From Candidatus Hadarchaeota archaeon (GTDB lineage Archaea; Hadarchaeota; Hadarchaeia; Hadarchaeales; JAWBSP01): a stretch of 64,000 nucleotides of DNA. The notes below the pieces were generated by a model that was not told the DNA's origin, searched no databases, and saw only the letters and a program-made list of their open reading frames with translations. Location of the stretch: NCBI GenBank assembly GCA_964474885.1, contig CAYYWO010000003.1:1-64000 (forward strand). The letters are read 5' to 3'. The translations under genes were made by a program, and so were the position numbers. Each line of letters opens with the position of its first letter. Positions within the stretch are counted from its first letter, which is position 1. This document shows positions 20,629 to 47,755 of the stretch, piece after piece.

Positions 20629-20652
20629 TGTCTGTTACCATAGTAACAGACA
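20629..20652. repeat. 24-bp palindrome copy 1
   Basis: TGTCTGTTACCATAGTAACAGACA. Confidence 0.95.
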
Positions 20653-20727
20653 GCAAGAAACACAGACGTATCTGTAGATTGGGCCCCATGGGCCTGAAGA
20701 TAGCTGTCCTGAGGAAGAGCAAACATC

Positions 20728-20751
20728 TTGGTGAATAAATTGGTGAATAAA
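20728..20751. repeat. 12-bp tandem direct repeat x2
   Basis: TTGGTGAATAAA-TTGGTGAATAAA in an AT-rich intergenic region. Confidence 0.7.
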
Positions 20752-20945
20752 TCTGAAATACTAGCGAACCGATTTCGGGGACATGCCTGAAGGCTGTGAG
20801 TTGAGAAAGAAGGTTCAGGAGATGTGGGATTAAGAGTGAGCCTTTTTGGTTCAGGGGCGAGAGAAAGAGGTTTAGTTCCGTCTGATTGCGTGGTTTTAAA
20901 CCGATGACAAGAATCTATTTCTTCACTCCGAGCCCTCCGACGTTC

Positions 20946-20969
20946 TGTCTGTTACCATAGTAACAGAAA
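20946..20969. repeat. 24-bp palindrome copy 2
   Basis: TGTCTGTTACCATAGTAACAGAAA. Confidence 0.92.
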
Positions 20970-21001
20970 GCACCCGAAATAAAGTAGACAAGAAGTAAAT
21001 T

Positions 21002-24157: not shown

Positions 24158-24199
24158 TCTCGATAGAAACAGGAAGCTTAAACCGTCGGTGTGCTCAGG

Positions 24200-24450
24200 T
24201 CAGGGTTTTTCCGTTCGAGCCGCGCGAGAGAAGGGAGAGGAGCTTCAGCATTGTCTCATCGAAGCCCTCATGAAAGTTGGCGTGTATCCTGCCGTGCCGG
24301 ACGAGGAGCGCTTTCCCCTTCATGCGAGGAGAGAGGATGGCTTTGGTGCAGTCCCAAGGAGCTCCCCGGCTCTTCCGGTACTCTCCTCTCCAGCTCAGGG
24401 ACCTTCTTCAAGAACTCGCTCGCCTCTTCTCTCAAATGCGAGGAGGCCAA
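24200..24450 (-). pseudogene. PaREP1/HEPN-like gene remnant
   Basis: LREEASEFL start, then IHANFHEG in a shifted frame. Confidence 0.4.
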
Positions 24451-24529
24451 AGTGTTTATCTGTTACAAACAGTTTGGAAGTGTTTGAACAGTTTACCTAG
24501 AAGTGTTGTTGATAACAATAAACAGTTCG

Positions 24530-24553
24530 TGTCTGTTACCATGGTAACAGACA
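24530..24553. repeat. 24-bp palindrome copy 3
   Basis: TGTCTGTTACCATGGTAACAGACA; half-site TATCTGTTAC nearby at 24457-24466. Confidence 0.95.
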
Positions 24554-24566
24554 AATGCTTTGCCGG

Positions 24567-25328
24567 CTAGTGGAGCTCGAACCTGTGCAGGATCCTCTTT
24601 TCCTTCCCCCTCACTTCCGCCACCACATCTATGTAGGGGGCGAGCCCGGACTTCTTTATCCTCTTCCCGAGTAGCTCATCCACTTGGAAGATGCCAGCCG
24701 AGTTCGACATCTTTATCCGGATGAGCACGGGTTTCTCGTCCCCCTTCAGGATCTCCACCTTCTCTATCGCCAGGGCGGAGACGGAGTGAATGTCCACCTT
24801 CCCCTCGTCGAAAGGTATCCTGGCCCTCCCCTTCTCCATGTCCAGGGCGTCCGCGATGCAGAAGATCCCCGCCTCCTTGGTCAGCACGGGGCAGTCCGGG
24901 TGGTGGGAGGAAATCGCGTGCAGGGTCTCGGCTATTATTACCTCCCTCTCCTCGGGTGGGTAGTCGTGCAGCAGGCGCTTCAGGATCGGGTAGCTCAGAA
25001 GCACGCTGAAGAACTCGTGTTCCTTGCGCTGAACCACCATCCCTATGTCGTGGAGGACGGAGGCCAGGAAGATCACGATCTCCGAGTACTCCTTCGGCAG
25101 CTTGTGCTGGGTGATGTCGGGCAGCTTGACCCCTTCGAGCAGCTTGTAGAGCTTCAGGGCCGCGTTCGCCACTATTTTCACGTGCACGGGCCCGTGGTCC
25201 GTGTAGCCCAGGCGCTCTATCGCCATCAGGTTGGCACACCTCCACAGGGTGTGGAGCTCCTCGTCCCTCTCCACCCTCCTCACCAGCTTGGCCAGCTTCC
25301 TGTTCTCGGTTTTCACATCCAACCTCAT
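24567..25328 (-). CDS. HD-domain phosphohydrolase
   Basis: DHGPVH, LHDIG, ADALDMEKGRAR, NSAGIFQ. Confidence 0.88.
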   Translation of the reverse strand: MRLDVKTENRKLAKLVRRVERDEELHTLWRCANLMAIERLGYTDHGPVHVKIVANAALKLYKLLEGVKLPDITQHKLPKEYSEIVIFLASVLHDIGMVVQRKEHEFFSVLLSYPILKRLLHDYPPEEREVIIAETLHAISSHHPDCPVLTKEAGIFCIADALDMEKGRARIPFDEGKVDIHSVSALAIEKVEILKGDEKPVLIRIKMSNSAGIFQVDELLGKRIKKSGLAPYIDVVAEVRGKEKRILHRFELH

Positions 25329-25383
25329 CGAATGAATAGTGCGGGCTCGCTCGAAACGACTTCGCCATGCCTACAATTCCTTT

Positions 25384-25530
25384 TCAAATGGTGATTTCGA
25401 TCTTGCCGTTCTTGTTGCAGATGGCCAGGAGCCTGCCGCGCTTCTCGTCGTATATCAGGGCACACTCGTTTGGCTTCAAAATTCTCACAAGCTTCTCCTC
25501 GAGCTGCCGTTCTTCCGTTTGAGTCCACAA
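25384..25530 (-). CDS. Possible 48-aa small protein
   Basis: TTG start; ...LVRILKPNECALIYDEKRGRLLAICNKNGKIEITI; below ORF-track cutoff. Confidence 0.3.
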   Translation of the reverse strand: MWTQTEERQLEEKLVRILKPNECALIYDEKRGRLLAICNKNGKIEITI

Positions 25531-25701
25531 ATGATTAATATCCTGCTAATATTTTGTTGTGGTGCTTGTCCTTGGTTAATTCACAAGGAGAATAAACCGG
25601 TATTCCGCTTCACGTCCTCCCATAGAGTTTGGTGTCAAGCACCCGCAGAACGGATCCCACAAAGAGGCCGTTGCAAAAGGTTTGCGTTACAAGCAGGATT
25701 A

Positions 25702-25775
25702 CGGGCCGGCCGGGATTCGAACCCGGGTTACAGGCTCCGCAGGCCTGTGTCCTATCCAGGCTAGACTACCGGCCC
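25702..25775 (-). tRNA. tRNA-Arg(GCG)
   Basis: GGGCCGG/CCGGCCC acceptor stem, CAGGC-CTGCGGA-GCCTG anticodon arm, GTTCGAATC T-loop; no intron, no encoded CCA. Confidence 0.95.
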
Positions 25776-25805
25776 CTTCATTACTTCTTGAGCCAGGATA
25801 AGTCG

Positions 25806-27863
25806 ATGGGCTTGCGGAGAGTCGCCTTGGCCCAAGGTATAGCCACTTGCTCGGGCGCGTGCTTCTGGATCCTCCTAGCCCTTAGCCTCCACCCCTACGC
25901 GCTCGGGGAGGTGGGGTGGGTTTACTGCTTGTCCATGCTCTGCTCCACCCTGGCCTCCCTTGGCCTGGGGAAGTCCATCGTGGTCTGCCACTCTCCAAGT
26001 CCCTCCACCGCCTTCTATACCCTCCTCCTCTCCTCAACCTTTGTGGGGCTCCCGCTCTCCTTCCTCCTTCACCCCTGGGCTGGCCCGCTGCTCTTCTCCT
26101 TCTGCCTCTTCTCCCTGAGCTTCCACCTGTGCCTAGCGGAGGCGGATTACTCTCATTACCTGCTCCTCTGGGTGCTCAGGTCCTGCATGCTCTCCCTCCC
26201 CCTCCTGCTCTACCTGCTGGTAGGTGAGGTCTGGGTCATCTACCTGGGCCTAGTGCTCTCCCACCTCTGTCCCGGGCTCTCCGCTCTCCGCAGGCTGTCT
26301 GTTACCATGGTAACAGACAAACCGCACCCGGGCAGGCTGGCGGGCTTCCTCCTCACGGACCTAGGGGCCGCCTCCCTGAGCTTCCTAGACAAGGTGGTGG
26401 CTGGACCTCTGCTTGGCATGACTACTCTAGGGCTCTACTACTTCTCCTGCAGGCTCTTCTACCTCCTAGCCTTCCTCCCCCAGACCCTCTTCTTCTACGG
26501 GCTCTCTACCGGCTCCAGGCGCCTCCGCCGCTTGGCCCTGCGCTCCTCCCTCGGCCTGCTGGCTGCCTGCCTGCCCCTCAGCCTCCTGCTCCCTAACGCC
26601 TTCCCCGATTACTCCGCCTGCCTGCCCGCCTTCCAGCTCATGCTGCTGGCCATAGTCCCCGCCACCCTCTCCCAGGTCTGCAGTGCTGAGCTCCTTTCCG
26701 AGCGCAGGCCTGCAGGCACCTCCGTAGCCTACGCCACCGCCGTCCCCCTCCAACTTCTGTCCGTGCTCGTGCTGGGGCGGAGGTTCGGGCTCATGGGGCT
26801 GGCTGGGGCCTTCCTCCTCACCCAGTGCGTGCTCGCCTGCATGCTATGGCTCATGCCCAGACTCAGGGAGGAGTCCAGGCGGATCTGCCTGGGGCTGCTC
26901 TCCCTCGCCCTCCTCTGCCCGCTGCTCCTGCTCTCCCTCTCCATGCCCAGGTACGAGTACGGACCTGGGTACGTGAGCGCGGAGGACCTTGTCATGGACA
27001 CCCTAGTTAGAATCACGGTTCTGGACGAGAACCTGCAACTTGCGAGGTCAGCCGTTTCCAAGGCCCTAGAGGAAGTGCACAGGCTGGACCGGATGCTCTC
27101 GAGCGAGGAAGGGGGGACTGAGATATGGGAGGTGAACCATTCGGCTGGGTGGGTGCGGGTCTCCCCCGAGACCTATCAGCTCCTGCAGGCCTCCCTGCAC
27201 TACGCCCGGCTAACTGGGGGTGCCTTCGACCCAACCGTCAAGCCCCTCGTTGACCTCTGGATGAAGGAGGTGAGGCGGACGGGGAAGCTCCCCAGCCGGG
27301 AGAGACTGGAAGAAGTCAGAGGGCTTGTCGATTGGAGGAGAGTGAGGCTTGAGAATGGGCGGGTCAGACTGGAGCAGGGGATGGAGCTGACCCTAGGAGG
27401 GATAGCGAAGGGTTATGCGGCGGACAGGGCATGCGAGATTCTCAGGTCGGCCGGCATCCGTGCGGGCATGGTGCAGATAGGAGGGGAGATCAGGGTTTTC
27501 GGGAAGACATGGGAAATCGGCATCCAGCACCCCAGACGGCCCGAAAAGCTCCTCGGGAGGGTGAAGCTCCGGGATGCTGCCATCTCCACCTCAGGGGACT
27601 ACATAAGGGTTTACTTCTTGGGCTCCAGACGCCTGCACCACATCATCGATCCACGTACGGGGGAGCCGGCCACGGGCTGCCAGAGCGTAACGGTGATCGC
27701 CCCCACAGGCATGGAGGCAGATGCCCTGAGCACTGCCGCCTTCGTGCTCGGCCCCCAGGCAGGGCTCGAGTTGCTTGAGAACCTCGGGCTGCAGGGTGTG
27801 ATCGTGGACTCGGAAGGAAAGATCTACTGGACTGAAAACCTCAGCTGGTCACCCGAAAGCTAG
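25806..27863 (+). CDS. apbE: MOP/flippase-like membrane domain fused to ApbE FAD:protein FMN transferase
   Basis: About 12-13 TM segments with LDKVVAGPLLG..LGLY, then MDT, GAFDPTV, LGGIAKGYAAD, STSGDY, HHIIDPRTG, ADALSTA. Confidence 0.85.
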   Translation: MGLRRVALAQGIATCSGACFWILLALSLHPYALGEVGWVYCLSMLCSTLASLGLGKSIVVCHSPSPSTAFYTLLLSSTFVGLPLSFLLHPWAGPLLFSFCLFSLSFHLCLAEADYSHYLLLWVLRSCMLSLPLLLYLLVGEVWVIYLGLVLSHLCPGLSALRRLSVTMVTDKPHPGRLAGFLLTDLGAASLSFLDKVVAGPLLGMTTLGLYYFSCRLFYLLAFLPQTLFFYGLSTGSRRLRRLALRSSLGLLAACLPLSLLLPNAFPDYSACLPAFQLMLLAIVPATLSQVCSAELLSERRPAGTSVAYATAVPLQLLSVLVLGRRFGLMGLAGAFLLTQCVLACMLWLMPRLREESRRICLGLLSLALLCPLLLLSLSMPRYEYGPGYVSAEDLVMDTLVRITVLDENLQLARSAVSKALEEVHRLDRMLSSEEGGTEIWEVNHSAGWVRVSPETYQLLQASLHYARLTGGAFDPTVKPLVDLWMKEVRRTGKLPSRERLEEVRGLVDWRRVRLENGRVRLEQGMELTLGGIAKGYAADRACEILRSAGIRAGMVQIGGEIRVFGKTWEIGIQHPRRPEKLLGRVKLRDAAISTSGDYIRVYFLGSRRLHHIIDPRTGEPATGCQSVTVIAPTGMEADALSTAAFVLGPQAGLELLENLGLQGVIVDSEGKIYWTENLSWSPES
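26296..26319. repeat. 24-bp palindrome copy 4 (intragenic, in frame)
   Basis: TGTCTGTTACCATGGTAACAGACA, read as LSVTMVTDK. Confidence 0.95.
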
Positions 27864-28145
27864 GGACATCACTTTCCTCTCCGCCTCCTCCCTCCTCCGC
27901 TTTTCCTCCTCGCAGAGCTTGTGAATGTACCTGACCTCGCTCTCGGACGGGACCTGCATGCCCATCTTGGAGAGCCTGGCGAGCTCCTCCATCTTCTCCT
28001 CCAGCGTCCAATCCAGCTGCCCCATGACGCACCTGCACCTCCTGTCCATATCCGGTCTGTCCGGATCCTCGCACCGGAAGGGGACACCAGGCTCGGGTGA
28101 GAAGAAGAGGCATCGCTGGCACGCCAGGACCTTCATTATCTTCAT
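27849..28145 (-). CDS. Small Cys-containing hypothetical protein
   Basis: 98 aa, CxxC plus further Cys, charged tail. Confidence 0.5.
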   Translation of the reverse strand: MKIMKVLACQRCLFFSPEPGVPFRCEDPDRPDMDRRCRCVMGQLDWTLEEKMEELARLSKMGMQVPSESEVRYIHKLCEEEKRRREEAERKVMSLAFG

Positions 28146-28181
28146 ATCACTACAACAGCCTTCAGGGTTTTTAAAAGGGTT

Positions 28182-28205
28182 TGTCTGTTACCATGGTAAC
28201 AGACA
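28182..28205. repeat. 24-bp palindrome copy 5
   Basis: TGTCTGTTACCATGGTAACAGACA. Confidence 0.95.
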
Positions 28206-28276
28206 AGTTACCCGTCAAGAGTGAAAATTTTATCCCCGCCCGAGCAGTTTTTGATTTCCTCCCGTTAGGTGATCCT

Positions 28277-30100
28277 GTGATTGCCCTCATCCTTGCCGCT
28301 GGATACGGGACTAGGCTCAGACCACACTCCGAGACCAGGCCCAAGTCTCTCATGGAGATAGAGCCCGGGGTGACCATCCTTGAGTACCAGCTTAAGCAAC
28401 TGAGGGAGGCTGGCCTGAGCAGCATCTATGTGGCGACGAGACCGGAGCTCGCCAGGCTCTTCTCCAAGTACGTGGATCCCTCCCACATCCTCCCCGTCAG
28501 GGTTTCGGAGGGGGATGGAAACCTCGTCACCCTAGTGAAGGCTTGGAAGCAGCTGGAGAAGAGGGGGGTAAGAGGGGATTTGGTGGTGGTGATGTCTGAT
28601 CATATCTTCGAGAGATCCATCGTCACTAGGCTCCTCCAGGCTAGGGACGGGAGGCTTCTGCTCTGCCTGGACCGAAGGCCGAGGGGCTCGGTGGTGAAGG
28701 AGGGCCTGAAGGTGGCCATAGACGGGAATGGCATGATAAAGGTCTCTAAACAGGCCGCCCCGATCCAAGGGGTGGACACGGGCCTCTTCCTCATCCCTAG
28801 ACAGCTGCTCAGGCTGGCCGAAAAACTCGTCAGGACTGGGAGGGGTACCCTAGCGGACCTCGTGAACGAGGCCTCAGATCACGAGAAAGTCGGGTGCGTG
28901 GACGTGACGGGGCTGCTCTGGCTGGATGTGGACTCAAGCAAGGATCTGCACAGGGCGAGGAGGGTGTACCCCAAGATTCTAGCTAGGAACCTTGTAGAGG
29001 AGGGGGACGGCCTTGTTTCTAGGTACATAAACCGGAGGTTCTCAACGCCCCTGAGCATCTTTTTCTACCAACGCAGGGTGAACGTGAATCCCAACCTTAT
29101 CACCGTCCTTGTAGCCTGCCTAGGCATCCTAGCCTGCATCTCCCTCTTCTGGAATCCCATAGCCGGTGCCTGCCTGATCCTCCTCACCTCCATCCTGGAC
29201 GGCGTGGACGGGGAGGTGGCCAGGCTCTTCGGCACCACGAGCAGGTTCGGAGCCGTGCTGGACAGCCTCTGCGATAGGGTGGTGGATACCCTCCTGCTCT
29301 CAGTCGCCTGCATCTGGGTTTATCAGTCCGGCCTGCTCCCCGCCCAGCATCTGCTCCTCCTTGCCACCTTCACCATCATGGGTGCCGCCATGGTGAGCTA
29401 CCTAAGCAACTGGCTGGGGTGGAGCGAGTCCCTCTGCAGGCTTAGGAACTCCTTCCCCCCAGCCACAAGGGATGTCAGACTCCTCGTCCTAGCGCTGGGA
29501 TTTTGCTTCGAGCACCCTGAAATGTCCCTCATCTACATCCTCATGTCCTCCTGGATCTTCGTGGGCAGGGTAGTCTGGGGGCTGAGGGAGAGGGTGCCCA
29601 AGAAGGTGCTACCGAAGCGGAGGGCTTTCCCCGAGATCACCCCACACCCTAGGGTGGAGCTGGAGGGTATGATCATAAACACCCTCTCCCTTATCCTAAC
29701 CATTTACCTTCTCCAGAAGGCCCTCTCCCTTACCTCCCAGCTAGGAGGAGGCTGGGTGCTGGTGGGGAGGACCGTGGCTGTGGTCGGGGTGGCTTTCGTC
29801 CTCCTCTTCTCCCTGAGGCTGCTGAAGAACATCGTGGGCCTCTTCACGGGCCTCAAAGAGCACGTGGTCAGGACCTTCTGGGTGGGGCCGGGCCTCTACG
29901 AAAAGCTGGGATACGAACTCGCCGCCTTCATCTCCCTCCTCATCATCCGCTCGCTCGTCGGACCCTTGGCGGGCATCTTCGGGCTCTCCAGGTGGGGGGT
30001 GGAGGTGCTTGACTTCGCCCTACTTGCCCTCCTCTGTTTGTCCGGTGTGAAGCTGGTGCTGGACTTCATAAGAACCTTCGAGCACAAACTGGCGCGCTAA
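28277..30100 (+). CDS. Bifunctional NTP-transferase/CDP-alcohol phosphotransferase (IPCT/DIPPS-like) with extra C-terminal TM domain
   Basis: LAAGYGTRL, MSDH, DTGLF, DGLVSRYINRRFS, DGVDGEVAR..GAVLDSLCD; GTG start after AGGTGAT. Confidence 0.85.
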   Translation: MIALILAAGYGTRLRPHSETRPKSLMEIEPGVTILEYQLKQLREAGLSSIYVATRPELARLFSKYVDPSHILPVRVSEGDGNLVTLVKAWKQLEKRGVRGDLVVVMSDHIFERSIVTRLLQARDGRLLLCLDRRPRGSVVKEGLKVAIDGNGMIKVSKQAAPIQGVDTGLFLIPRQLLRLAEKLVRTGRGTLADLVNEASDHEKVGCVDVTGLLWLDVDSSKDLHRARRVYPKILARNLVEEGDGLVSRYINRRFSTPLSIFFYQRRVNVNPNLITVLVACLGILACISLFWNPIAGACLILLTSILDGVDGEVARLFGTTSRFGAVLDSLCDRVVDTLLLSVACIWVYQSGLLPAQHLLLLATFTIMGAAMVSYLSNWLGWSESLCRLRNSFPPATRDVRLLVLALGFCFEHPEMSLIYILMSSWIFVGRVVWGLRERVPKKVLPKRRAFPEITPHPRVELEGMIINTLSLILTIYLLQKALSLTSQLGGGWVLVGRTVAVVGVAFVLLFSLRLLKNIVGLFTGLKEHVVRTFWVGPGLYEKLGYELAAFISLLIIRSLVGPLAGIFGLSRWGVEVLDFALLALLCLSGVKLVLDFIRTFEHKLAR

Positions 30101-30107
30101 AAGAAAA

Positions 30108-31055
30108 CTACAAGCCTTTCCTGAACTCGAGCAGGAATCTCTGACTCGCTGCCGCCACCGCCCCATACATGCCTACTTCCTCCCCGAGAACCGTAAGCTC
30201 AATCTTGGGCACGGCATTGATTGCATACTCCTTTACCCGCTCCCTCACGGGATCCAAGATCAGCTGCCCGGCCGCCAGGGCTACCGCTCCCCCGACGACT
30301 ATGAGCTCGGGATCGTAGGAGTTTATCACGTTGGCGAATCCTATGGTGTTAAACTTGTGCACCTGCTCCATCAGCCGCTGAACCCTCTTGTCCCCTTGCC
30401 TGGCGAGAGAGAGGATCTGCTCGCAGGACTTCTGCATGCCCATGTGCCTAGCCAGAGCCTCTATGCCAGGTCCGGAGCAGTAAGCCTCCCAATGCCCCCT
30501 CCTGCCGCACCTGCACTTGAGCTTTCCCTCCGGATCCACCGTGTAATGCCCGACCTCGTGGGCATTCCCGTCCTTCCCCCAAAGCACCCTCCCATCCACG
30601 TAAATGCCTGCCCCTATGCCCGCACCTAGGTTGATGTAAACCATGTTGTCCACTCCCTTCCCCAAGCCGAACTCGTGCTCACCTATCGCTGCCGCCACAC
30701 AGTCGTTTATGAGATAAACATCTGTCTTTAGTTTCTTCTGTAGGGTCTGAACCAAAGGAACGCGCTCGAATGGGAGATGGACGGGATTTACTAACTCGCC
30801 CTTGCTCAGATCCATGGGGCCGAAGGAAGCTACGCAGGCGATGGAGAGCTCCGAGGGCTGGATGCCGGCCTTCTTGCACAGGTTCTCCGATATCTTGACC
30901 AGCTGAAGGAGGAATTCTCTCATGCTTCCCTTCTTAGTCGGCTCTTTGATCGTGTAGAGCAACTCCTTCCCGTCGGAGATGCCTGCCCTTACCTTCTTCC
31001 CACCAACATCTATGCCAAGATAGATGCTCCCCCAGGTTTCTTCGATCTTGTACAA
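30108..31055 (-). CDS. ROK family sugar kinase
   Basis: GIDVGG, NDCVAAAIGE, GIGAG, EVGH, CRCGRRGHWE; start uncertain. Confidence 0.88.
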   Translation of the reverse strand: MYKIEETWGSIYLGIDVGGKKVRAGISDGKELLYTIKEPTKKGSMREFLLQLVKISENLCKKAGIQPSELSIACVASFGPMDLSKGELVNPVHLPFERVPLVQTLQKKLKTDVYLINDCVAAAIGEHEFGLGKGVDNMVYINLGAGIGAGIYVDGRVLWGKDGNAHEVGHYTVDPEGKLKCRCGRRGHWEAYCSGPGIEALARHMGMQKSCEQILSLARQGDKRVQRLMEQVHKFNTIGFANVINSYDPELIVVGGAVALAAGQLILDPVRERVKEYAINAVPKIELTVLGEEVGMYGAVAAASQRFLLEFRKGL

Positions 31056-31064
31056 AAATGTTTG

Positions 31065-31928
31065 ATGGAGATTCTGAGCGATTTCGATCCTTGGGGGGAT
31101 CCCCTCTGCACCTGCCCGCCCAAGTACTCTCTTAACCCTTACACGGGCTGCCAGCATGCGTGCGTTTACTGCTATATCACCTCCTATATCCCCAACGGCT
31201 TCAAGTGCAGAGCTAAGAAAAACCTCATAGCCAGGCTTTCAAGGGATCTCAACAAGGTGGACAAGGAAAAGCCCATAAGCCTTTCGAACAGCAGCGACCC
31301 CTACCCGCCCATGGAGGCTGAGCTCAAGCTGACGAGGAAATGCCTAGAGCTCATCGTGCAGGCAGGTGTCCCTTTCCAGATCGTGACCAAGGGAGACCTC
31401 GTGACGAGGGATCTGGATCTTTTAAAAGAGGGTAAATGCGTAGTGAGCCTCACCATAACCACCTTAGATGAGGGACTGGCCAAGAGGCTGGAGCCTGGAG
31501 CGCCCAGGCCCAAGGAGAGGCTCAGGGCGATGCGAGTGCTCTCCAAGGCAGGCATCCCCGTCACTCTCAGGGCCGACCCCATCTTCCCGTACTTGAACGA
31601 GGAGGGGATCGTGGAGGTTGTGGAGGCTGCCGCTCAGGCAGGGGCGAGGCACGTCACGGCCTCCACCTTCAAGCCCAGGCCCGACTCCTGGAGGAGGATG
31701 ACGCTCTCCTTCCCGGAGTTCTGCGAGCGCACGAAGCGGCTGTATTTCGACTACGGGTGGAAGCACGGCCCCAGCAGGTACCTCCCGAAAAGGCTGAGAG
31801 TCCAGCTCCTAGACAGGGTCAGAAGGGTGTGCGAGAGGCTGGGAGTTTCTTTCGCGACATGTAGAGAGGGGCTAAAATTCCGGGCGCCCAGCTGCGACGG
31901 GACTCACCTGATCAGAGCGCGTCCTTGA
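31065..31928 (+). CDS. Radical SAM protein (spore photoproduct lyase-like)
   Basis: NPYTGCQHACVYCY, SDPYPP, LEPGAP. Confidence 0.88.
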   Translation: MEILSDFDPWGDPLCTCPPKYSLNPYTGCQHACVYCYITSYIPNGFKCRAKKNLIARLSRDLNKVDKEKPISLSNSSDPYPPMEAELKLTRKCLELIVQAGVPFQIVTKGDLVTRDLDLLKEGKCVVSLTITTLDEGLAKRLEPGAPRPKERLRAMRVLSKAGIPVTLRADPIFPYLNEEGIVEVVEAAAQAGARHVTASTFKPRPDSWRRMTLSFPEFCERTKRLYFDYGWKHGPSRYLPKRLRVQLLDRVRRVCERLGVSFATCREGLKFRAPSCDGTHLIRARP

Positions 31929-32409
31929 GCCTCCACCCGAATCTGGAAACCCTCTCCTCCAAGTTTGATAGGAATTCCCTGTCCGGGGCTGGGAGACTTC
32001 CCTTTCTAAGTAGTGCCTTTCCCAGCTCCAGCTCCCCCGTGGAAAGTCTGACGGGGCCTTCCAGCATGCTCCTGAGGGCCTCCCTGTACTGCTCCCGGGT
32101 GAGGAGCCCATCTACTACATGGATCTCGATGGGCTTCCACTCGGGTTTGGAGAGGAAGCTGAGGATCTGCTCGCATGCCCCGGGCGGGACAGCTATCACG
32201 CTCTTGCCTAAAGCTAGGTGTGGTATGGTAGAAAGGAGACCTGGTACGTATGTTCTGTAAAGGCGATTCCCCCTGCGCTTGCTGGTGTAATACCCGAACA
32301 GTTGCCTGTAAAACTTCACCTTCTTGGAGCCCTTTGCACCCAAGTCGAAGCTGATTATCTTGGCCCAGACCCCCTTCTTTCTAGTGGAACTACCTTCATC
32401 CTTTAGCAT
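31912..32409 (-). CDS. Hypothetical protein, possible Cas2/PaaX-like ferredoxin fold with basic insert
   Basis: IISFDL...KFYRQLFGY...GLL..IP...LGKSVIAVP pattern; ATG at 32409. Confidence 0.6.
   Translation of the reverse strand: MLKDEGSSTRKKGVWAKIISFDLGAKGSKKVKFYRQLFGYYTSKRRGNRLYRTYVPGLLSTIPHLALGKSVIAVPPGACEQILSFLSKPEWKPIEIHVVDGLLTREQYREALRSMLEGPVRLSTGELELGKALLRKGSLPAPDREFLSNLEERVSRFGWRLKDAL
32369..32390 (-). promoter_or_regulatory. ORB-like (Orc1/Cdc6 origin recognition box) element
   Basis: Minus strand GTTCCACTAGAAAGAAGGGGGT matches the TTCCAnnnGAAAnnnGGGG ORB pattern. Confidence 0.65.
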
Positions 32410-32411
32410 GC

Positions 32412-32435
32412 TGTCTGTTACTATAGTAACAGACA
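32412..32435. repeat. 24-bp palindrome copy 6
   Basis: TGTCTGTTACTATAGTAACAGACA (perfect palindrome). Confidence 0.95.
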
Positions 32436-32464
32436 CCTTAATAACTTGGTTGAGTTTTTCTTAG

Positions 32465-32486
32465 CTTCCAGTTGAAACTAGGGGGT
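32465..32486 (+). promoter_or_regulatory. ORB-like element
   Basis: CTTCCAGTTGAAACTAGGGGGT; 17/22 identical to the inverted box at 32369-32390. Confidence 0.65.
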
Positions 32487-33518
32487 TCCTTTCACCCAAC
32501 TGCTGACCTGCCCAAGCAATTCAGCTGCCCGCTTGTTTCTCTCGAAATGCGCTCTGACAGGCTCAATCAGTCTGTCTAAGTACTCGGCGCATGCGAGCTT
32601 CAGATCGAGCGGGTGTATTTGTCCATCCCTGTAGGCCTGCTCGAGCTCTCCAAAGTGCGTGAAGGTCTCCCAGTTACCTCCCCTAAGTCTGACCCTGAAC
32701 TCTTGGAACTCCTCGAACACTAGGTGCCTGATGTAGTCCATGATCGGATTGTTTGGGTCCCGCTGGGGGCAGTAGGCCCTCCTCAGCTTCCGCTCGATCT
32801 CCTGCTTGGAGTCGTGCACGAAGATACAGGTCTCTGGCCTGCTCTTGCTCATCTTCTCCTCCGAGGTTCTCCCCATGAGCCCCATCAGCATGTGGTGGTG
32901 GATGGCGACAGGTTTGGGTTTCCCTATTTTGGGCGCTACCTCCCTAGCCAGCATGTTCGCCCTCCGTTGATCCATGCCCAGCTGGCAGACCTGAACGCCC
33001 AGGTAAAAGATGTCCGCCACTTGCATACTGGGGTAGAAGATCCAAGCGGTAGGATTGTGCAGGCTCTCCCCCCTTCCCGCGATGGTGAGGGCCCTGAGGC
33101 TCCTGGAGAGAGTGTGGTGCTTGGCTATGTTGAGGACGAGCCTCCAATACTCGGGATCCCTGACCAAGTCGGAGGACCAGACTATTTCCACTCTGTCCAG
33201 AGGGACGCCTGCGGCCTTCCAGACCTCGATCAGGTATTTCCCTACGGTCCTTATCTTTTCTAGATCCCCCCCCACCTTGTCGTTTATCCAAGCGAACCAG
33301 TCCGCAAGCAGTAGTTTGAACCTGAAGCCGGCCTGCAGGAAGCGCCGGAGCGTCAGGGGCCTGTAAATGCCGAAGGGGAGGTGGGCTAGGCCTGAGGGCT
33401 CGAAGCCGTCGTAGGCAAGGGGGGACTCCTCGGTCTCCAGCAGGCTCCTGAGCTCCTCCTCCGTTACGATCTCCTCGGCCACACGTTTGACCAGCTGGAG
33501 CTTGGTTTCAACGTCCAC
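32478..33518 (-). CDS. tyrS: Tyrosyl-tRNA synthetase
   Basis: YDGFEPSG, YPSMQVADI, GMDQRR, KMSKS, HPLDLK. Confidence 0.95.
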   Translation of the reverse strand: MDVETKLQLVKRVAEEIVTEEELRSLLETEESPLAYDGFEPSGLAHLPFGIYRPLTLRRFLQAGFRFKLLLADWFAWINDKVGGDLEKIRTVGKYLIEVWKAAGVPLDRVEIVWSSDLVRDPEYWRLVLNIAKHHTLSRSLRALTIAGRGESLHNPTAWIFYPSMQVADIFYLGVQVCQLGMDQRRANMLAREVAPKIGKPKPVAIHHHMLMGLMGRTSEEKMSKSRPETCIFVHDSKQEIERKLRRAYCPQRDPNNPIMDYIRHLVFEEFQEFRVRLRGGNWETFTHFGELEQAYRDGQIHPLDLKLACAEYLDRLIEPVRAHFERNKRAAELLGQVSSWVKGTP

Positions 33519-33996
33519 CTTTCAGCCTCTCCGCCAGCTGGGCGACCTTCCTGCCCAGGCCCCGGCACTCCTTCTCCGCCTGCTCGTCCGGCGCCCCGTT
33601 AGCAGCCGCCCCGAAGTGCCCGCCGGTTGAGAGAGGATCCCCGCACACCACCATGCCGTGCACGAGCAGGGAGTGAAGGATAGAGAGCATGGTAGTCTCT
33701 CTTCCTCCTGCCCTGTGTCTGGAGGAGCAGAATGCTGCACCTACTTTCCCCTCCAGCTTCCCCCTCACCCTTATGGATTCGTCGAGGAACTTCTTCACCT
33801 CTGCCGCAGGTCCGGCGAAGTAAGCCGGGCTGCCTATGATGACCCCATCGGCTTCCAAGAGCTCCTCGACCCTCGCCTCCCTGACATCCTTCAGAACGAC
33901 TTCGGCCCCGGCCTCCCTAGCTCCCCTAGCTACCTCCTCAGCCATCCGCTTCGTGTTCCCGGTTCTCGAGTAGTAAAGGACGAGTATCCTAGCCAT
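33508..33996 (-). CDS. Flavodoxin/WrbA-like NAD(P)H-dependent oxidoreductase
   Basis: YYSRTGNT, GSPAY, GKVGAAF, GGRETT. Confidence 0.88.
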   Translation of the reverse strand: MARILVLYYSRTGNTKRMAEEVARGAREAGAEVVLKDVREARVEELLEADGVIIGSPAYFAGPAAEVKKFLDESIRVRGKLEGKVGAAFCSSRHRAGGRETTMLSILHSLLVHGMVVCGDPLSTGGHFGAAANGAPDEQAEKECRGLGRKVAQLAERLKGGR

Positions 33997-34032
33997 CTAT
34001 TCAGTTTTCCCAATTTCAAAAATCAGGCCGAG

Positions 34033-34056
34033 TGTCTGTTACCATGGTAACAGACA
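34033..34056. repeat. 24-bp palindrome copy 7
   Basis: TGTCTGTTACCATGGTAACAGACA. Confidence 0.95.
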
Positions 34057-34091
34057 AACCTCAACGGGTTAAAACGTGTTCGAAAGATTAG

Positions 34092-34580
34092 ATGGAGGCA
34101 AAGCCGATAATAGCCCTTACTCTGATCTGTGCCCTCTGGGGGATGGTTCTAGGTTTTGTGCACCAGCTGACCGAGGCGAAGATCAAGGAGGCCGAGCAGA
34201 AGGAGAAGGAGAAGCAGTTGCTTCAGATCTTCCCCGGCTGCACCTTCGAGGAGGAGAACGGCATATACTACTGCTATTCCGAGAACCAGCTGGTCGGGAA
34301 GGCCGTGGAGGTGCAGGTGAGGGGTTATGGGGGGCCCATGAAGGTATTAGTAGGCATCAGGATAGACAACACGATTCAGGGGGTTCGGGTGCTCTCTCAT
34401 AATGAGACGAGAGGAATAGGGACGAAAGCCACGGATCCTGAGTACCTCGCCCAGTACGAGGGGCTGGCATACGAGCAACTGGCGTTCAGACCGGAGGGGG
34501 AGGTGGAGGCGATAACAGGAGCTACGATAACCTCAACCGCCATCCTGCAGGCCGTGAGGGAGGCGATGCAGCATGCCTGA
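34092..34580 (+). CDS. rnfG: Rnf complex subunit G
   Basis: GYGGP, HNETRGIG, ITGATITS FMN site. Confidence 0.93.
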   Translation: MEAKPIIALTLICALWGMVLGFVHQLTEAKIKEAEQKEKEKQLLQIFPGCTFEEENGIYYCYSENQLVGKAVEVQVRGYGGPMKVLVGIRIDNTIQGVRVLSHNETRGIGTKATDPEYLAQYEGLAYEQLAFRPEGEVEAITGATITSTAILQAVREAMQHA

Positions 34581-35166
34581 GCTGGGTTGGGAGCTGAAGA
34601 AGGGGCTGGCGAAGAAGAACCCGATCTTCATGCTAATGCTCGGGCTCTGCCCCTTCCTGGCGATTTCCACCTCCGTTGAGAACGCCCTGGGCATGTCTGC
34701 GGCCTTCTCCTTCGTCCTCTTGGGCTCATGCCTGCTCGTCTCCTGCATCAGGAGGTGGGTGCCGAGGAACGTGCGCATCCCGATCTTTGTCGTCATTATT
34801 TCGGGCTTCGTGACGGTCACGGAGCTCCTGGTGAGGGCTTACTCCCCCACCCTCAGGGAGCGCTTGGGCATCTTCCTCCCCCTGATCACGGTCAACTGTA
34901 TAGTGCTGGGGAGGATAGAGGCCTTCGCCTCCAGGCGGTCCCCCCTCGAGACGGTGGCGGATGCCCTAGGCATGGCGGGGGGCTTCTGCCTGGCCATAAC
35001 CTCGGTGGCTCTCATCCGGGAGCTGGTGGGGACGGGAGGGATCAGCTTCTTCGGGCATACTTGGACCCTGCTAGCCCAGTCCATCTACGGCTTCCAGCTC
35101 TCCCCGGGAGGGTTCATTGTTATGGGTGTGATACTGGCTGCACTCAAGAAGAAGGGGGTGATATGA
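34573..35166 (+). CDS. rnfE: Rnf complex subunit E
   Basis: LGLCPFLA, VRIP, PLITVNCIVLGR. Confidence 0.93.
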   Translation: MPELGWELKKGLAKKNPIFMLMLGLCPFLAISTSVENALGMSAAFSFVLLGSCLLVSCIRRWVPRNVRIPIFVVIISGFVTVTELLVRAYSPTLRERLGIFLPLITVNCIVLGRIEAFASRRSPLETVADALGMAGGFCLAITSVALIRELVGTGGISFFGHTWTLLAQSIYGFQLSPGGFIVMGVILAALKKKGVI

Positions 35167-35741
35167 TGGAGAACCTGCTGAGCATCTTCCTAACTTCCAT
35201 GCTGATAAACAACATCGTGCTCACGCGCTACATAGGCCTCTGCCCATTCTTCGGCATCTCCAGAAATCTCGCGAACTCGGGCATGATGGGCCTGGCTGTC
35301 ACCTTCGTCATGCTGGGCTCCTGCACGGTCACCTGGTTTGTGAATCAGTTCCTCCTCGCTCCTTTTGGTGTTCAGTACATGCGCATAGTGGCCTTTATTC
35401 TCGTCATAGCCTCCTTCGTGCAGCTGGTGGAGATAATCATGCGGAAAGCCCTCCCCAAGTTTTACTCTGCTTTTGGAATATACCTGCCCCTCATAACCAC
35501 CAACTGTGCTATTCTAGCGGTCAACCTGATAAACTTCGACGAGGCGTACTCCCTGCCTGCCTCCTTGGTGAATGCCCTCGGGACGGGTTTAGGGTTCATG
35601 CTCGCCATATGCCTGCTTGCAGGCCTGAGGGAGAGGCTGGAGTCCGAGGAGCTCCCGCGCTCCATGCGGGGGGCACCTATAGCCTTCATCTCGGCTGGCC
35701 TCCTCGCCCTCGCCTTCCAAGGATTCGTGGGAATAGGATGA
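35163..35741 (+). CDS. rnfA: Rnf complex subunit A
   Basis: NNIVL, GLCPF, GIYLPLITTNCA. Confidence 0.93.
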   Translation: MMENLLSIFLTSMLINNIVLTRYIGLCPFFGISRNLANSGMMGLAVTFVMLGSCTVTWFVNQFLLAPFGVQYMRIVAFILVIASFVQLVEIIMRKALPKFYSAFGIYLPLITTNCAILAVNLINFDEAYSLPASLVNALGTGLGFMLAICLLAGLRERLESEELPRSMRGAPIAFISAGLLALAFQGFVGIG

Positions 35742-36511
35742 TAGGTGAACTCCTGACGCTGTCCTTGGTGGGGCTGGGGTTTGGGGCCCTCCTGAGCTGG
35801 GCTTCCTCTAGGTTCGCCGTTCAGGTGGACGAGCGCGTGGAGGAGGTGAAGAGCATGCTCCCGGGAGCCAACTGTGGGGCATGCGGGTTCAGGGGGTGTG
35901 AGGATTACGCCAAAGCACTAGTTGCAAACCCGAAGCTAATAGACAGGTGCAGAATTCTTACGCCATCGGAAAGGAAGCGCCTGGCCTCCTATCTAGGGAT
36001 AGAGACGGGGGAGGTGGAGTGGACAGTGGCGGTTCCTCTCTGCTCCGGGAAGAGCAAGAGGAGGTTCGAATACGTGGGGGAGCGCAGCTGCTTGTCCGCT
36101 TCCCTTTTGGAAGAAGGGCCCACCGCATGCAAGTATGCATGTCTTGGATTCGGGGACTGTGAGAGAGCATGCCCGTTCGAGGCCATAAAGATGGTGGACG
36201 GACTTCCACAAGTGGACTGGGAGAAGTGCAAGGGCTGCGGGCTCTGCGTCCAGGCCTGTCCCAGAGGAGTGATGAAGTTGCTACCTAGGAATGCCGCAGT
36301 GGTGGTGAGGTGCAACTCTCCGGAAATTGGGAAAGTGGTAGTGACAAGCTGTGACAATGGATGCATCAAGTGCAGGCTGTGCGAGAGGAACTGTCCAACT
36401 GGTGCGATAAAAGTTACCGACAAGGTCACGATCGACTACTCAATCTGCAACGCGTGCATGAAATGTGTTGAAGCCTGCCCCAGAAAGATCATCCAACCCC
36501 TCAAGGGCTGA
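35738..36511 (+). CDS. rnfB: Rnf complex subunit B
   Basis: LPGANCGACG plus multiple ferredoxin motifs. Confidence 0.93.
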   Translation: MIGELLTLSLVGLGFGALLSWASSRFAVQVDERVEEVKSMLPGANCGACGFRGCEDYAKALVANPKLIDRCRILTPSERKRLASYLGIETGEVEWTVAVPLCSGKSKRRFEYVGERSCLSASLLEEGPTACKYACLGFGDCERACPFEAIKMVDGLPQVDWEKCKGCGLCVQACPRGVMKLLPRNAAVVVRCNSPEIGKVVVTSCDNGCIKCRLCERNCPTGAIKVTDKVTIDYSICNACMKCVEACPRKIIQPLKG

Positions 36512-36526
36512 TAGTTTCACCTGATG

Positions 36527-36550
36527 TGTCTGTTACTATGGTAACAGACA
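36527..36550. repeat. 24-bp palindrome copy 8
   Basis: TGTCTGTTACTATGGTAACAGACA. Confidence 0.95.
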
Positions 36551-36608
36551 ACGAGGTCGTGACATCTCCGAGTTTTTTAAATTTTCACTTTGGGACTTTA
36601 CAAACTGC

Positions 36609-36632
36609 TTTCTGTTACCATGGTAACAGACA
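36609..36632. repeat. 24-bp palindrome copy 9
   Basis: TTTCTGTTACCATGGTAACAGACA. Confidence 0.92.
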
Positions 36633-36645
36633 GCAGTCAGAGATT

Positions 36646-38244
36646 TCAGCTCTTTTTGTGTTCTAGGCAGCTCTGGAGGAAAGCAACGAAAACTGGGGAA
36701 GGCTTTTCGAGTCTGGAGGTAAACTCGGGGTGGAACTGGGTACCCAGAAAGAAGGGATGATTGGGGAGCTCTAAAATCTCCATCCTCCTGCCATCGGGGG
36801 ATGTGCCCGAGAATTTCAGCCCGGCGGACTCGATCCTGGGGATGTAGGAGGGATTCACCTCATACCGGTGCCTGTGCCTTTCCCTTATGAGTTCCGAACC
36901 GTAGATGCGATGAGCTATAGTCCCTTTCTTGATCACGATCTCGTGGGCACCCAGCCTCATGGTCCCCCCCTTCTCCCTCACCTGTTTCTGCTCGGGTAGC
37001 AAGTCTATGACGGGATGGGGCGTGTTGGGGTCTATTTCGGTGCTGTTGGCATTCTTCAGCTTGAGGACGTTCCTAGCGAACTCCACGACGGCAAGCTGGA
37101 ATCCGAAGCACAGGCCTAGGAATGGCACCTTCCTCCTCCTGGCATACTTTATAGAGAGGATCTTCCCCTCGGTTCCCCTGCGACCGAAGCCTCCAGGGAC
37201 GAGAACGCCGTCGAAGGGATCGAGCAGGGAAAGCTCCCCAGCCTCCAGCCTCTCCGCCTCTATCCACCGAATGTCCACCCTCACCCCGAGGAAGGCGGCC
37301 GCGTGCTTGAGGGCCTCGTTGATGCTCAGGTAGGTGTCTGCGATCCTGACGTACTTCCCCACCATGGCTACCCTGATTTTCCTCCTCGCTTTTTTGACTT
37401 TCTCGACCAGCCTCCTCCACTCGGAGAGGTCGGAACTGCTGCCCCTGAGCCCCAGCCTCTCTAGGATTTTTTCGCCCAGCCCTTGGGCATCCAGCATGAG
37501 CGGGATCTCGTAAATGTTTTCAACGTCCACGTCCGAGAACACGGAGCCCTCGGGCACGTTGCAGAAGAGGGAGATCTTCCGCCTTGCCTCCTCCGTCAGA
37601 GGCTGTTTGCATCTGCATAGGATGAGATCGGGGGTGATGCCGGCTTCCCTGAGCTCCTTCACCGAGTGCTGGGTGGGCTTAGTCTTCTGCTCCCCAACTA
37701 CGTCCAGCGAGGGCACTAGGGTGACGTGGATGAAGATCACGTTGTTCGGTCCCTCCTCCAGTCTGAGCTGCCTGACGGCCTCTAGGAAGGGCATGGCCTC
37801 TATGTCCCCCACCGTCCCCCCGATCTCGACCAGGCAGACGTCTACGTCACAGGCCTTGGCGACACGTCTGATGCGGTTCTTGATGGCGTCCGTCACGTGG
37901 GGGATTATTTGTACAGTTTTTCCTAGATAGTCCCCCCTGCGCTCGGCTTGGATCACCTCCCAGTAGATCTGGCCGGTGGTTATGTTGTGCTCCTTCGTCA
38001 GGTTCTGGTTCAGGAAGCGCTCGTAGTGCCCCATGTCCTGATCTATCTCCCCCCCATCATCCGTCACGAAGATCTCCCCGTGCTCGAAGGGATTCATGGT
38101 TCCCGCATCCACGTTGAGATAGGGATCTATCTTAATGGCGGTAACTCGGAGACCCCTAGACTGCAGGATCTTCCCGATGGAGGCTGTGACTATCCCCTTT
38201 CCCAGCCCGCTTATAACACCGCCAGTTACTACCACGAATTTCAC
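36646..38244 (-). CDS. pyrG: CTP synthase
   Basis: [30 protein letters not shown]. Confidence 0.98.
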
Positions 38245-38436
38245 GGAAATCTAACCTAGGAGGTAACCTAATTAAAGGTTTCGTTACCCACGGTTATGGT
38301 CTTTCTAACAGTCCCTTTTCTTTTGTTCCCACCACGTCTTGTAGTTCATCTTTCTTTGAGTTCTCCCCATGCCTCCTTGTAGCTTCGGTACATCTTGAGG
38401 AAGATTCCCATAGGCTTAAAACCGCATACAGGCATT

Positions 38437-38460
38437 TGTCTGTTACCATGGTAACAGACA
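38437..38460. repeat. 24-bp palindrome copy 10
   Basis: TGTCTGTTACCATGGTAACAGACA. Confidence 0.95.
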
Positions 38461-45004: not shown

Positions 45005-45022
45005 CAGAGTTTGATGTTCTAG

Positions 45023-47724: not shown

Positions 47725-47755
47725 CGGCTCTTAACCGAGAGCCGCAAAATGCTTG

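Follow-up and report, generated by a model that had tools for sequence, protein, structure and literature searches.

The 118-bp DNA unit described here (positions 32369-32486) lies where tyrS, the tyrosyl-tRNA synthetase gene, meets a gene for a 165-amino-acid (165-aa) protein in a member of the Hadarchaeota, a phylum of uncultivated archaea from the subsurface and from hot springs. Two inverted origin recognition boxes (ORBs) bound the unit and enclose a palindrome and an AT-rich stretch, and very probably it serves as a chromosomal replication origin. A literature search turned up no paper on the replication origins of Hadarchaeota or Hadesarchaea. Positions refer to the window, by which we mean the whole 64,000-nt stretch of DNA that was analysed (contig CAYYWO010000003.1 of assembly GCA_964474885.1). 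Where genomes, contigs and loci have to be told apart, this assembly is G000 and the contig that contains the window, 150 kb in length, is C3. The features at the locus are as follows.

31912-32409, minus strand: gene for the 165-aa protein ('hyp165'), with its ATG at 32409; it adjoins the ORB pair in relatives.
32369-32390, minus strand: left ORB, GTTCCACTAGAAAGAAGGGGGT (the plus strand reads ACCCCCTTCTTTCTAGTGGAAC), with its G-string pointing outward, to the left.
32391-32464: spacer of 74 bp that separates the boxes and is presumed to be where helicases are loaded and the DNA unwinds.
32412-32435: perfect 24-nt palindrome with 0 mismatches, TGTCTGTTACTATAGTAACAGACA, with the core TGTTAC-N4-GTAACA at 32416-32431.
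32436-32464: AT-rich stretch of 29 nt, 31% GC.
32465-32486, plus strand: right ORB, CTTCCAGTTGAAACTAGGGGGT, with its G-string pointing outward, to the right.
32478-33518, minus strand: tyrS (Pfam tRNA-synt_1b, E 1.3e-41), transcribed toward the candidate origin.

An earlier annotation made from the letters of the window, called the sequence-only reading below, had described inverted boxes 74 bp apart around a palindrome and an AT-rich stretch, both boxes overlapping coding sequence, and its coordinates and letters proved correct. The left box lies within codons 7-14 of the gene for the 165-aa protein, and the right box covers the tyrS stop codon (32478-32480) together with the last two codons. 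The true intergenic gap between the two genes is 68 bp (32410-32477) and has to accommodate the 165-aa gene's promoter; by eye, a TATA-like TTATTAA can be read on the minus strand of 32436-32464, about 28 nt upstream of the ATG at 32409. At 35% GC compared to an assembly mean of 52%, the spacer ranks among the 2.9% of 74-bp windows in the assembly that have the lowest GC content, and its AT-rich stretch is most likely the segment that melts first. Rfam models searched against 31.5-33.5 kb gave nothing real, the one hit being a miRNA model at E 0.21.

Each box carries the TTCC..GAA dyad and a G-string, and the two are inverted with the minus-strand box first, as is expected of an ORB-type origin. 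'TTCC' and 'GAA' are given as the invariant ORB core in a section of a study of the Pyrococcus origin (PMC1904270). An AT-rich element also lies between the boxes, as such origins require, though its AT-rich core of 29 nt is short. When up to two mismatches are allowed, TTCCANTNGAAANNNGGGGGT has two matches in the window versus 0.09 expected, and none of 100 shuffled versions reaches two. Strict and loose regular expressions recovered these two ORBs only from the 60 contigs (1,183,335 bp) of the assembly. The sequence-only reading had recommended a scan for ORBs, and its prediction fared well in one: a weight matrix trained on 37 ORBs of relatives, with the own genome left out, assigned 28.6 bits to the left box and 25.8 bits to the right box, which are ranks 1 and 2 of the assembly. 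The matrix matches that come next, at C8:22676 and C1:80569, reach 18.4 and 18.0 bits; each is an isolated site in coding DNA of high GC content, and both were discarded.

The arrangement of the boxes is conserved among relatives. An ORB pattern search covered 41 genomes of the order and found matches in 26 of them. Single matches mean little because a reversed control also produced scattered matches; the signal resides in the pairs. Among 30 fetched loci, we inspected the 16 whose matched words were ORB-like. Twelve of these have a minus-strand/plus-strand pair at no more than two substitutions, and the other four have a partner box at looser settings. An independent route, by way of the 165-aa protein, led to 17 loci in genomes partly shared with the first set; 16 of the 17 have such a pair, and none was found in locus L045. 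Two loci of this second set also yielded a GC-rich second 'pair', which we attribute to chance. Without exception, the minus-strand box is the left member of the pair and the plus-strand box the right one. Spacer length is 70-77 bp in several genera, including that of the window. Other genera have 118-218 bp, and boxes with a small gene nested between them are 341-415 bp apart.

When the 30 loci were searched by tblastn with proteins from the window, 14 had tyrS next to the boxes and 9 had the 165-aa gene there (our own locus is counted in both numbers), and none of the 30 had a counterpart of the window's cdc6 gene at that place. The ORB/spacer/ORB unit is thereby seen beside tyrS across the Hadarchaeota, as the sequence-only reading had proposed should be checked. 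An alignment of eight compact origins (seven distinct sequences) has its invariant columns concentrated in the palindrome and both boxes. In other families the left box lies 60-90 bp upstream of the start of the 165-aa gene. In the window it encodes part of an N-terminal tail that is disordered in the structural model (residues 1-10, predicted local distance difference test score (pLDDT) <50), and the tblastn matches to the tyrosyl-tRNA synthetase stop at residues 323-335 of 346, leaving a non-conserved C-terminus. Because of the upstream position elsewhere, the disordered tail and the early end of the synthetase matches, both coding overlaps appear to be incidental to an element that is maintained at the DNA level.

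Origins that lack the 165-aa gene, which we term type B, have an ORB pair that encloses an open reading frame (ORF) of 118-129 aa with a LAGLIDADG_1 domain. Examples are L002:1571-1960 and L024:1534-1890 (Pfam E 6.7e-9 and 6.5e-8), and the same arrangement is present in L004, L026, L022, L010 and L009. The 3′ end of the nested ORF overlaps the plus-strand ORB. Type B is, as predicted from these loci, a second hadarchaeal origin type that has a homing-endonuclease-like gene nested inside. Genome G012 (1.6 Mb) presents yet another arrangement: an ORB pair with an AT-rich spacer is located at C21:1388-1601, the 165-aa gene is on another contig (C2:48916-49464), and a full palindrome is found 83 nt outside the ORB pair. 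This split could reflect two origin-like loci or a rearrangement.

The assembly encodes two clear Orc1/Cdc6 genes and has one weak Cdc6_C match. An ORF of 418 aa on contig C7 (locus L031 2-2658) scores 316 bits with Sulfolobus Orc1-1 (2QBY_A) and 303 bits with Aeropyrum ORC1 (2V1U_A), and is by these scores the predicted Orc1-1 orthologue. An initiator of the type expected for an ORB-dependent origin is therefore encoded in this genome. The C7 gene is directly upstream of the gene for the small subunit (DP1) of PolD. The other clear gene is in the window:

47753-48928, plus strand: Orc1/Cdc6 paralogue (NCBIfam TIGR02928, 257 bits).

This is the cdc6 gene named in the sequence-only reading, which has to be corrected on this point. 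Its best solved relative is 1FNN (195 bits), with lower scores for 2QBY_A (163) and 2V1U_A (151), and it represents a second paralogue, the Orc1-1 orthologue being the one on C7. The same reading was right that no ORB precedes the window's cdc6: the interval 43.4-49.5 kb contains no matrix match, no repeat cluster and no AT-rich gap. No ORB was found near either of the two Orc1/Cdc6 genes (C7 and window). A second origin near the cdc6 paralogue was considered and rejected, since neither repeats nor an AT-rich gap occur there.

The adjacency of origin and initiator gene that is usual, though not obligatory, is consequently missing here, with Orc1-1 encoded on another contig and the paralogue 15 kb away; in relatives, orc1-1 is 7-12 kb from the ORB pair. 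Such separation has precedents. The main oriC of Hyperthermus butylicus is away from its initiator gene (preprint 10.64898/2026.08.15.744077), and the origins of Thermococcus litoralis and T. sibiricus are 453 and 349 kb from cdc6 (PMC4640148). In all three, as here, an ORB-defined origin is apart from the orc1/cdc6 gene. The hadarchaeal case differs from these in that the separation is conserved phylum-wide, that the origin is tied to tyrS, and that it is tied as well to a lineage-specific gene in about half of the genomes searched.

Strand composition provides evidence of a different kind. The clearest case is genome G041, which we infer from identical coordinates to be the same genome as G011. 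On its contig C1 (1,030,738 bp), the cumulative GC skew is V-shaped with a single global minimum at 790,950, and the disparity of amino versus keto bases (MK disparity) peaks at 790,858. With the ORB pair at 790,997-791,104, the skew minimum is 47 bp away, a proximity with a chance probability of about 4e-4. After removal of the coding-strand effect, the regression breakpoint is at 790,000 for both measures. In G003, a member of another family in which 314 kb of contig C2 was examined, the MK maximum (326,419) falls inside the pair at 326,354-326,732, and the slope of the GC skew breaks at 326 kb.

Several observations weigh against the 118-bp unit as the origin of this genome. The GC-skew minimum of G003 is itself at 365,941, which is 39 kb from the pair. 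The raw cumulative GC skew of our own contig reaches its minimum at 47,274, a position adjacent to the cdc6 paralogue and 15 kb away from the boxes. The break at 30-36 kb that emerges once the coding strand is regressed out improves the fit modestly (residual sum of squares 0.308 to 0.275, F ~8.8 before allowing for the choice of breakpoint), and a keto-excess measure breaks at 58 kb. Also, two ORBs only, an AT-rich segment of 29 nt and boxes that overlap coding sequence are an unusual combination among described origins. Lastly, the assembly is 92% complete and in 60 contigs, which leaves room for a second origin.

In one rival explanation, the pair is a genuine Orc1-binding site but not the main or only active origin, being dormant or secondary, with replication starting in unassembled DNA or, by way of a motif of another kind that has escaped recognition, at the skew minimum near 47 kb beside the cdc6 paralogue. 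In addition to the raw skew minimum and the incomplete assembly, this explanation can draw on a switch in gene orientation at 47,274 next to the Orc1/Cdc6 paralogue, on the separate contigs that hold the ORB pair and the 165-aa gene in G012, and on the fact that several Orc1 paralogues often signify several origins, each with its own initiator (stated in a section of PMC12141716). However, minus-strand genes (pyrG and the pyr operon) occupy the 11 kb that lead up to the raw minimum at 47 kb, and with the coding strand regressed out this minimum moves, the best GC-skew breakpoints then being 36, 32, 34 and 30 kb. The region around the paralogue is also devoid of the ORBs, repeat clusters and AT-rich gaps noted above. 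Moreover, in the near-complete relative G041 the skew forms a single V whose lowest point is at the ORB pair, and the cdc6-paralogue gene of that genome is 38 kb off. We consider this explanation unlikely. The skew of our contig is compatible with an origin at the pair but indecisive, and the case rests on the relatives. The GC-skew check that the sequence-only reading called for thus had a divided result, with a switch at the pair in two relatives and a raw minimum elsewhere in the contig from which the prediction was made.

In a second rival explanation, the boxes lack origin function and are regulatory sites for an Orc1-type protein, acting jointly with the palindrome to control how the 165-aa gene is transcribed. 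The unit does coincide with the promoter and 5′ end of this gene, palindrome sites bracket the gene in several genera, and a section of PMC9738581 describes a non-initiator Orc1 paralogue of Sulfolobales as a transcription regulator. Yet in other families the boxes are 60-90 bp upstream of the gene, or the gene is absent and a LAGLIDADG ORF is present instead (type B), while the inverted pair is kept in all. In two relatives the composition switch also falls at the pair, and in our genome the pair is the sole ORB site, which makes a purely regulatory role very unlikely. That the boxes are a chance resemblance in coding sequence, as their overlap with two reading frames might suggest, can be practically dismissed, given that no shuffle yields two matches, that the two best matrix matches of the assembly are inverted and 74 bp apart, that the boxes are conserved at the DNA level where they are non-coding in relatives, and that the residues they encode belong to a disordered protein tail and a non-conserved synthetase C-terminus.

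We therefore favor the interpretation offered by the sequence-only reading, namely a compact origin with an inverted ORB pair around an unwinding stretch, on the grounds of the uniqueness of the pair, its conservation beside tyrS and the composition switch in two relatives. With high though not complete confidence, the 118-bp unit is predicted to be a chromosomal replication origin of the Orc1-1/ORB type. It would resemble oriC1, with the order ORB(-), DNA unwinding element (DUE) and ORB(+), and it is probably the only origin of this hadarchaeon.

The closest parallels in architecture are found in haloarchaea and in Sulfolobales. The sequence-only reading had correctly seen that the G-strings point outward but regarded this as opposite to the haloarchaeal arrangement, and on this second point we disagree. 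In a mutational study of the minimal oriC1 of Haloarcula hispanica (PMC3936714), a passage of which is drawn on here, G-string I was changed from CCCCCC to TTTTTT and G-string II from GGGGGGGG to AAAAAAAA. Both ORBs and both G-strings are reported there as essential, with the G-string recognised by the AAA+ domain. If I is taken as the left and II as the right ORB, which that passage does not state outright, then the G-strings are on the outside. The Ori-Finder-Arch preprint (10.64898/2026.08.15.744077) likewise gives ORB(-)/DUE/ORB(+) as the minimal functional pattern, present in 67% of predicted CDC6-type origins of complete genomes. Because of the H. hispanica arrangement and this pattern, outward G-strings are canonical rather than anomalous. 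The oriC1 of H. hispanica described in that passage resembles the hadarchaeal unit in having an AT-rich region that lies between two ORBs, inverted and with outward G-strings, and in an additional inverted repeat just inside the ORBs, which there modulates efficiency. It differs in that it adjoins its cdc6 gene, that its G-strings are extended, and that its inner repeat is a G-rich enhancer rather than a TGTTAC palindrome.

The similarity to oriC1 of Sulfolobus/Saccharolobus, with the order ORB3-DUE(ucm)-ORB2, extends to overall size. Sections of the report by Dhanaraju et al. (2025, PMC12141716) describe two inverted ORBs around an AT-rich region, spanning 130 bp including the boxes compared with 118 bp here, and state that both ORBs are needed. 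Both systems have a conserved short motif midway between the boxes, the motif occurs at many other, mostly intergenic sites in each, and an Orc1-1 orthologue is present in each. Unlike the Sulfolobus origin, the hadarchaeal unit has two ORBs, not three, and does not adjoin orc1-1. Sections of the Pyrococcus oriC report (Matsunaga et al. 2007, PMC1904270) reveal a shared ORB core with G-string and a shared adjacency of orc1-1 and the PolD small-subunit gene. The Pyrococcus origin, in contrast, lies beside its cdc6-dp1 genes and has many ORBs and mini-ORBs, with the G-string about 8 nt further from the dyad; in the hadarchaeal genome, orc1-1 and dp1 adjoin each other away from the ORBs.

The palindrome is the second element of interest. 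A distance of 4 bp separates its midpoint from that of the ORB pair, and the centres of the two dyads are 39.5 and 47.5 bp away from this midpoint. In single-stranded form the palindrome folds as a hairpin of 10 bp (z -3.1). The sequence-only reading had treated it as a foreign site, but conservation speaks otherwise: the core is found at the same position of the origin across many genera. By eye, the core or its variants (TGTTAC-N4-GTATCA, TGTTAT-GGGT-GTAACA) can be read in the spacers of all 16 paired loci of the 165-aa set and also in those loci of the ORB search that bear the 165-aa gene. As counted by eye, GTTAC-N4-GTAAC always keeps a distance of 26-34 nt to the ORB nearer to the 165-aa gene, which in compact origins corresponds to the centre.

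Further copies are scattered through several genomes. Exact matches number 21 in G000, 30 in G001, 15 in G009, 2 in G002 and 2 in G012, and a reversed control gives 0 in all five. No exact copy was found in any of five genomes that lack the 165-aa gene. The 21 sites of our assembly are intergenic, and 10 of these exact TGTTACNNNNGTAACA sites fall within 17.8 kb around the origin versus 0.32 expected. They form one cluster:

20629-38460: ten 24-nt palindrome copies, starting at 20629, 20946, 24530, 26296, 28182, 32412, 34033, 36527, 36609 and 38437.

The remaining 112 kb of the contig has no copies. In G001, 13 of the 30 copies are on the 32-kb contig that carries the origin (1.07 expected), whereas no clustering around the origin was seen in G009 or G018. 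Palindrome sites occur in every type of intergenic gap, including those between convergent genes, and are therefore not simple promoter operators. As a separate observation, G001, which belongs to the same genus, has tandem TGTTACTATAGTAACA arrays with a spacing of 52-111 bp that are reminiscent of centromere or iteron arrays:

C18:11709-12067 (locus L126 3210-3553): seven copies.
C13:8954-9195: four copies.
C13:3827-4007: three copies.

The palindrome also has a bearing on gene annotation. It translates as SVT(M/I)VTD and offers GTG and TTG starts, and mechanically called ORFs extend into 28181-28205, 26296-26319 and 32412-32436. The ORFs extended in this way include a 639-aa ORF from 28181, a 174-aa version of the 165-aa gene and a 744-aa ORF fused upstream of an ApbE domain. 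Gene callers may therefore misplace starts at palindromes.

The short motif midway between the ORBs of Sulfolobus oriC1, ucm, was reportedly defined by Robinson and Bell in 2007. The hadarchaeal palindrome shares this midway location. It differs in sequence, ucm being TTATACAAAC as printed in the Ori-Finder-Arch preprint (10.64898/2026.08.15.744077) and the motif here TGTTAC-N4-GTAACA; by eye, a partial likeness to TTATACAAAC at 7-8 of 10 positions can be seen in some genera. It is also a 16-24-bp palindrome, which suggests a dimer, whereas ucm is 10 bp and is bound by a monomer of the protein UBP. The many intergenic sites that characterise the ucm system have counterparts in G000, G001 and G009 and not in G002, G011, G012 or G028, and the 21-30 palindromes compare with 329 UBP peaks in Sulfolobus, as given in a section of PMC12141716. 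The same paper, in the sections cited here, places the UBP family in Sulfolobales and Desulfurococcales only and proposes that UBP binds ucm between two loaded helicases. Judged by analogy, the unit is not a ucm/UBP module by sequence but resembles one in position and genome-wide spread.

Centromere-like palindromes near origins offer another comparison, known examples being the SegB sites of the SegAB system of Sulfolobales and bacterial parS. Similarities to these are the clustering of short palindromes at the origin in G000 and G001 and a MinD/ParA-type gene beside the origin in two relatives. On the other hand, the palindromes do not cluster in G009 and G018, a ParA-like gene is also beside the origin in G003, which is devoid of palindromes, and we identified no SegB or ParB homologue. 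By these analogies, a role of the palindrome as a protein-binding accessory element of the origin, comparable to that of ucm, has about an even chance of being correct, and the alternative is a centromere-like site. The suggestion made from the letters of the window that the site could link initiation to a palindrome-binding protein is plausible, with ucm/UBP (PMC12141716) as its precedent.

Perhaps the palindrome is recognised by the product of the adjacent 165-aa gene. This protein is basic (isoelectric point 10.0) and has 84 homologues, all from Hadarchaeota/Hadesarchaea/MSBL1, all named hypothetical and all without a Pfam domain; it belongs to no Pfam or NCBIfam family. The gene is present in 20 of the 41 genomes of the order, with a distribution by family of 2/2 in f1, 8/9 in f5, 1/1 in f4, 8/22 in f3 and 0/6 in f2, and three of the 20 genomes (G022, G029 and G031) have a weak match only. 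Palindrome sites bracket the gene in G018, G006, G015, G011 and G009. The first three of these genomes have one site just past the stop codon, one at the start and one in the origin, and the last two have two sites. A search for a separate binder gene, among the families that recur beside sites in G000, G001 and G009, left only tyrS and the 165-aa gene as common to all three.

An AlphaFold2 model of the protein (pLDDT 90.5) has a ferredoxin-like, Cas2-like N-terminal domain and a helical C-terminal part. Comparisons with known structures gave little beyond this. A sequence-profile search of the PDB returned designed helical proteins only, at E 0.02 or worse. Foldseek against the PDB reached a best E of 0.05, with Cas2 entries at probability 0.85-0.90 and a root-mean-square deviation of 4-6 Å. 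The wide VIA-align search gave generic ferredoxin-like folds (Z ≤7.7), and the ESM Atlas gave one unnamed cluster at 0.82. UBP is not among the listed fold matches, and a likeness to it may still exist. As a homodimer, the protein is modelled with a score of 0.74 versus 0.54 for the best of three controls, with at least 79% contact agreement and a partner pLDDT of at least 87. This mark was reached by 20 of 30 proteins that have been solved as pairs and by 1 of 23 solved as single chains.

Even so, there are reasons for caution about the protein and the dispersed sites. The fold searches found no recognisable DNA-binding fold in the 165-aa protein, and its success as a modelled dimer may reflect likeness to solved Cas2 dimers. 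The protein and the palindrome might occur together simply because both are syntenic with the origin. When one mismatch is allowed, palindrome matches number 26 in G018, 18 in G015, 10 in G006, 1 in G028 and 4 in G011, and the reversed controls give 1, 7, 7, 1 and 2, so that the control reaches 7 both in G015 and in G006, against 18 and 10. True sites number at most two in G002, G011, G012 and G028, although the 165-aa gene is present. Many sites, furthermore, are located between convergent genes. It is accordingly doubtful, if conceivable, that the palindrome binder is a dimer of the adjacent 165-aa protein.

With these reservations, a mechanism can be sketched for the putative origin. By analogy with Sulfolobus, Aeropyrum and Haloarcula, a monomer of the Orc1-1 orthologue would occupy each box with fixed polarity, the winged helix on the inner TTCCA..GAAA dyad and the AAA+ domain on the outer G-string. 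Monomeric binding of Orc1-1 to each ORB with fixed polarity is described in a section of PMC12141716, and two-part binding by Orc1 through its winged helix and the initiator-specific motif of its AAA+ domain is described in PMC3607249. Two inward-facing initiators would then load MCM on the 74-bp spacer, a step for which the recruitment of MCM by initiators at ORB2 and ORB3 of Sulfolobus is described in part of PMC12141716. Melting would begin in 32436-32464, and forks would depart both ways. A dimeric factor held by the central palindrome would sit between the two helicases, in the way proposed for UBP at ucm. Because the promoter and start codon of the 165-aa gene are superimposed on the origin, the palindrome site would also repress this gene: in this genus, as read by eye, it is between the TATA-like element and the ATG, and its occupancy would shut off the gene.

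If the dimeric factor were the 165-aa protein itself, its site would be about four helical turns from the nearer box, and further sites would be concentrated around the origin. Similar to UBP, the protein might act as a spacer or release factor for two loaded MCM rings, and it would repress its own gene; at the same time it might act as an organiser of the origin domain or as a centromere protein. We can only tentatively suggest, and rather doubt, that Hadarchaeota possess such an accessory system of their own, independently evolved, in which a dimer of the 165-aa protein binds the palindrome between boxes bound by Orc1-1 and also dozens of intergenic sites. In origins without the palindrome, the LAGLIDADG-type gene may encode an alternative accessory factor.

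A few other genes in the neighbourhood deserve mention. A gene for a MinD/ParA-type P-loop ATPase is beside tyrS and the origin in two relatives (G041:C1:789043-789852 and G003:C2 ~329.4-330.2 kb; 61-63% identical), and the window has a MinD/ParA-type ATPase gene at 15742-16554 on the minus strand, 16 kb from the origin. Downstream of the ParA-like gene is an ORF of 161 aa that has no relatives in two genomes; we set it aside as apparently spurious. A gene for a protein with a LigD-type primase-polymerase domain (44132-45043, minus strand, Pfam E 1.7e-76) is 12 kb from the origin. Another class-I synthetase gene of the Trp/Tyr type (50352-51437, plus strand), probably trpS, is 18 kb from tyrS and adjoins a tRNA-intron endonuclease gene.

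The unit has consequences for how archaeal origins are recognised. Ori-Finder-Arch asks for intergenic regions of at least 120 bp that either are adjacent to an initiator gene or have at least three ORBs with the (-)/DUE/(+) order (preprint 10.64898/2026.08.15.744077). With a gap of 68 bp, two ORBs that are partly coding and no adjacent initiator, the hadarchaeal unit falls outside its Types I and III, the two types covered by our comparison (Type II is assigned by BLAST to known oriCs). The main text of the preprint names other phyla and never Hadarchaeota, and its supplementary oriC tables might list hadarchaeal origins. Similar compact origins may be missed elsewhere by such criteria.

For the Hadarchaeota, a defined origin would allow assemblies to be oriented and growth to be estimated from metagenome coverage by means of the peak-to-trough ratio. 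The predicted origin is unusually compact, comprising 118 bp and two boxes, both partly in genes, and it could serve as a minimal origin sequence for study. The discoverers of UBP asked in 2025 whether analogous proteins exist at other archaeal origins, and the palindrome and its orphan gene are a candidate answer. This question could be addressed with recombinant proteins and a 118-bp DNA fragment even though the organism is uncultured.

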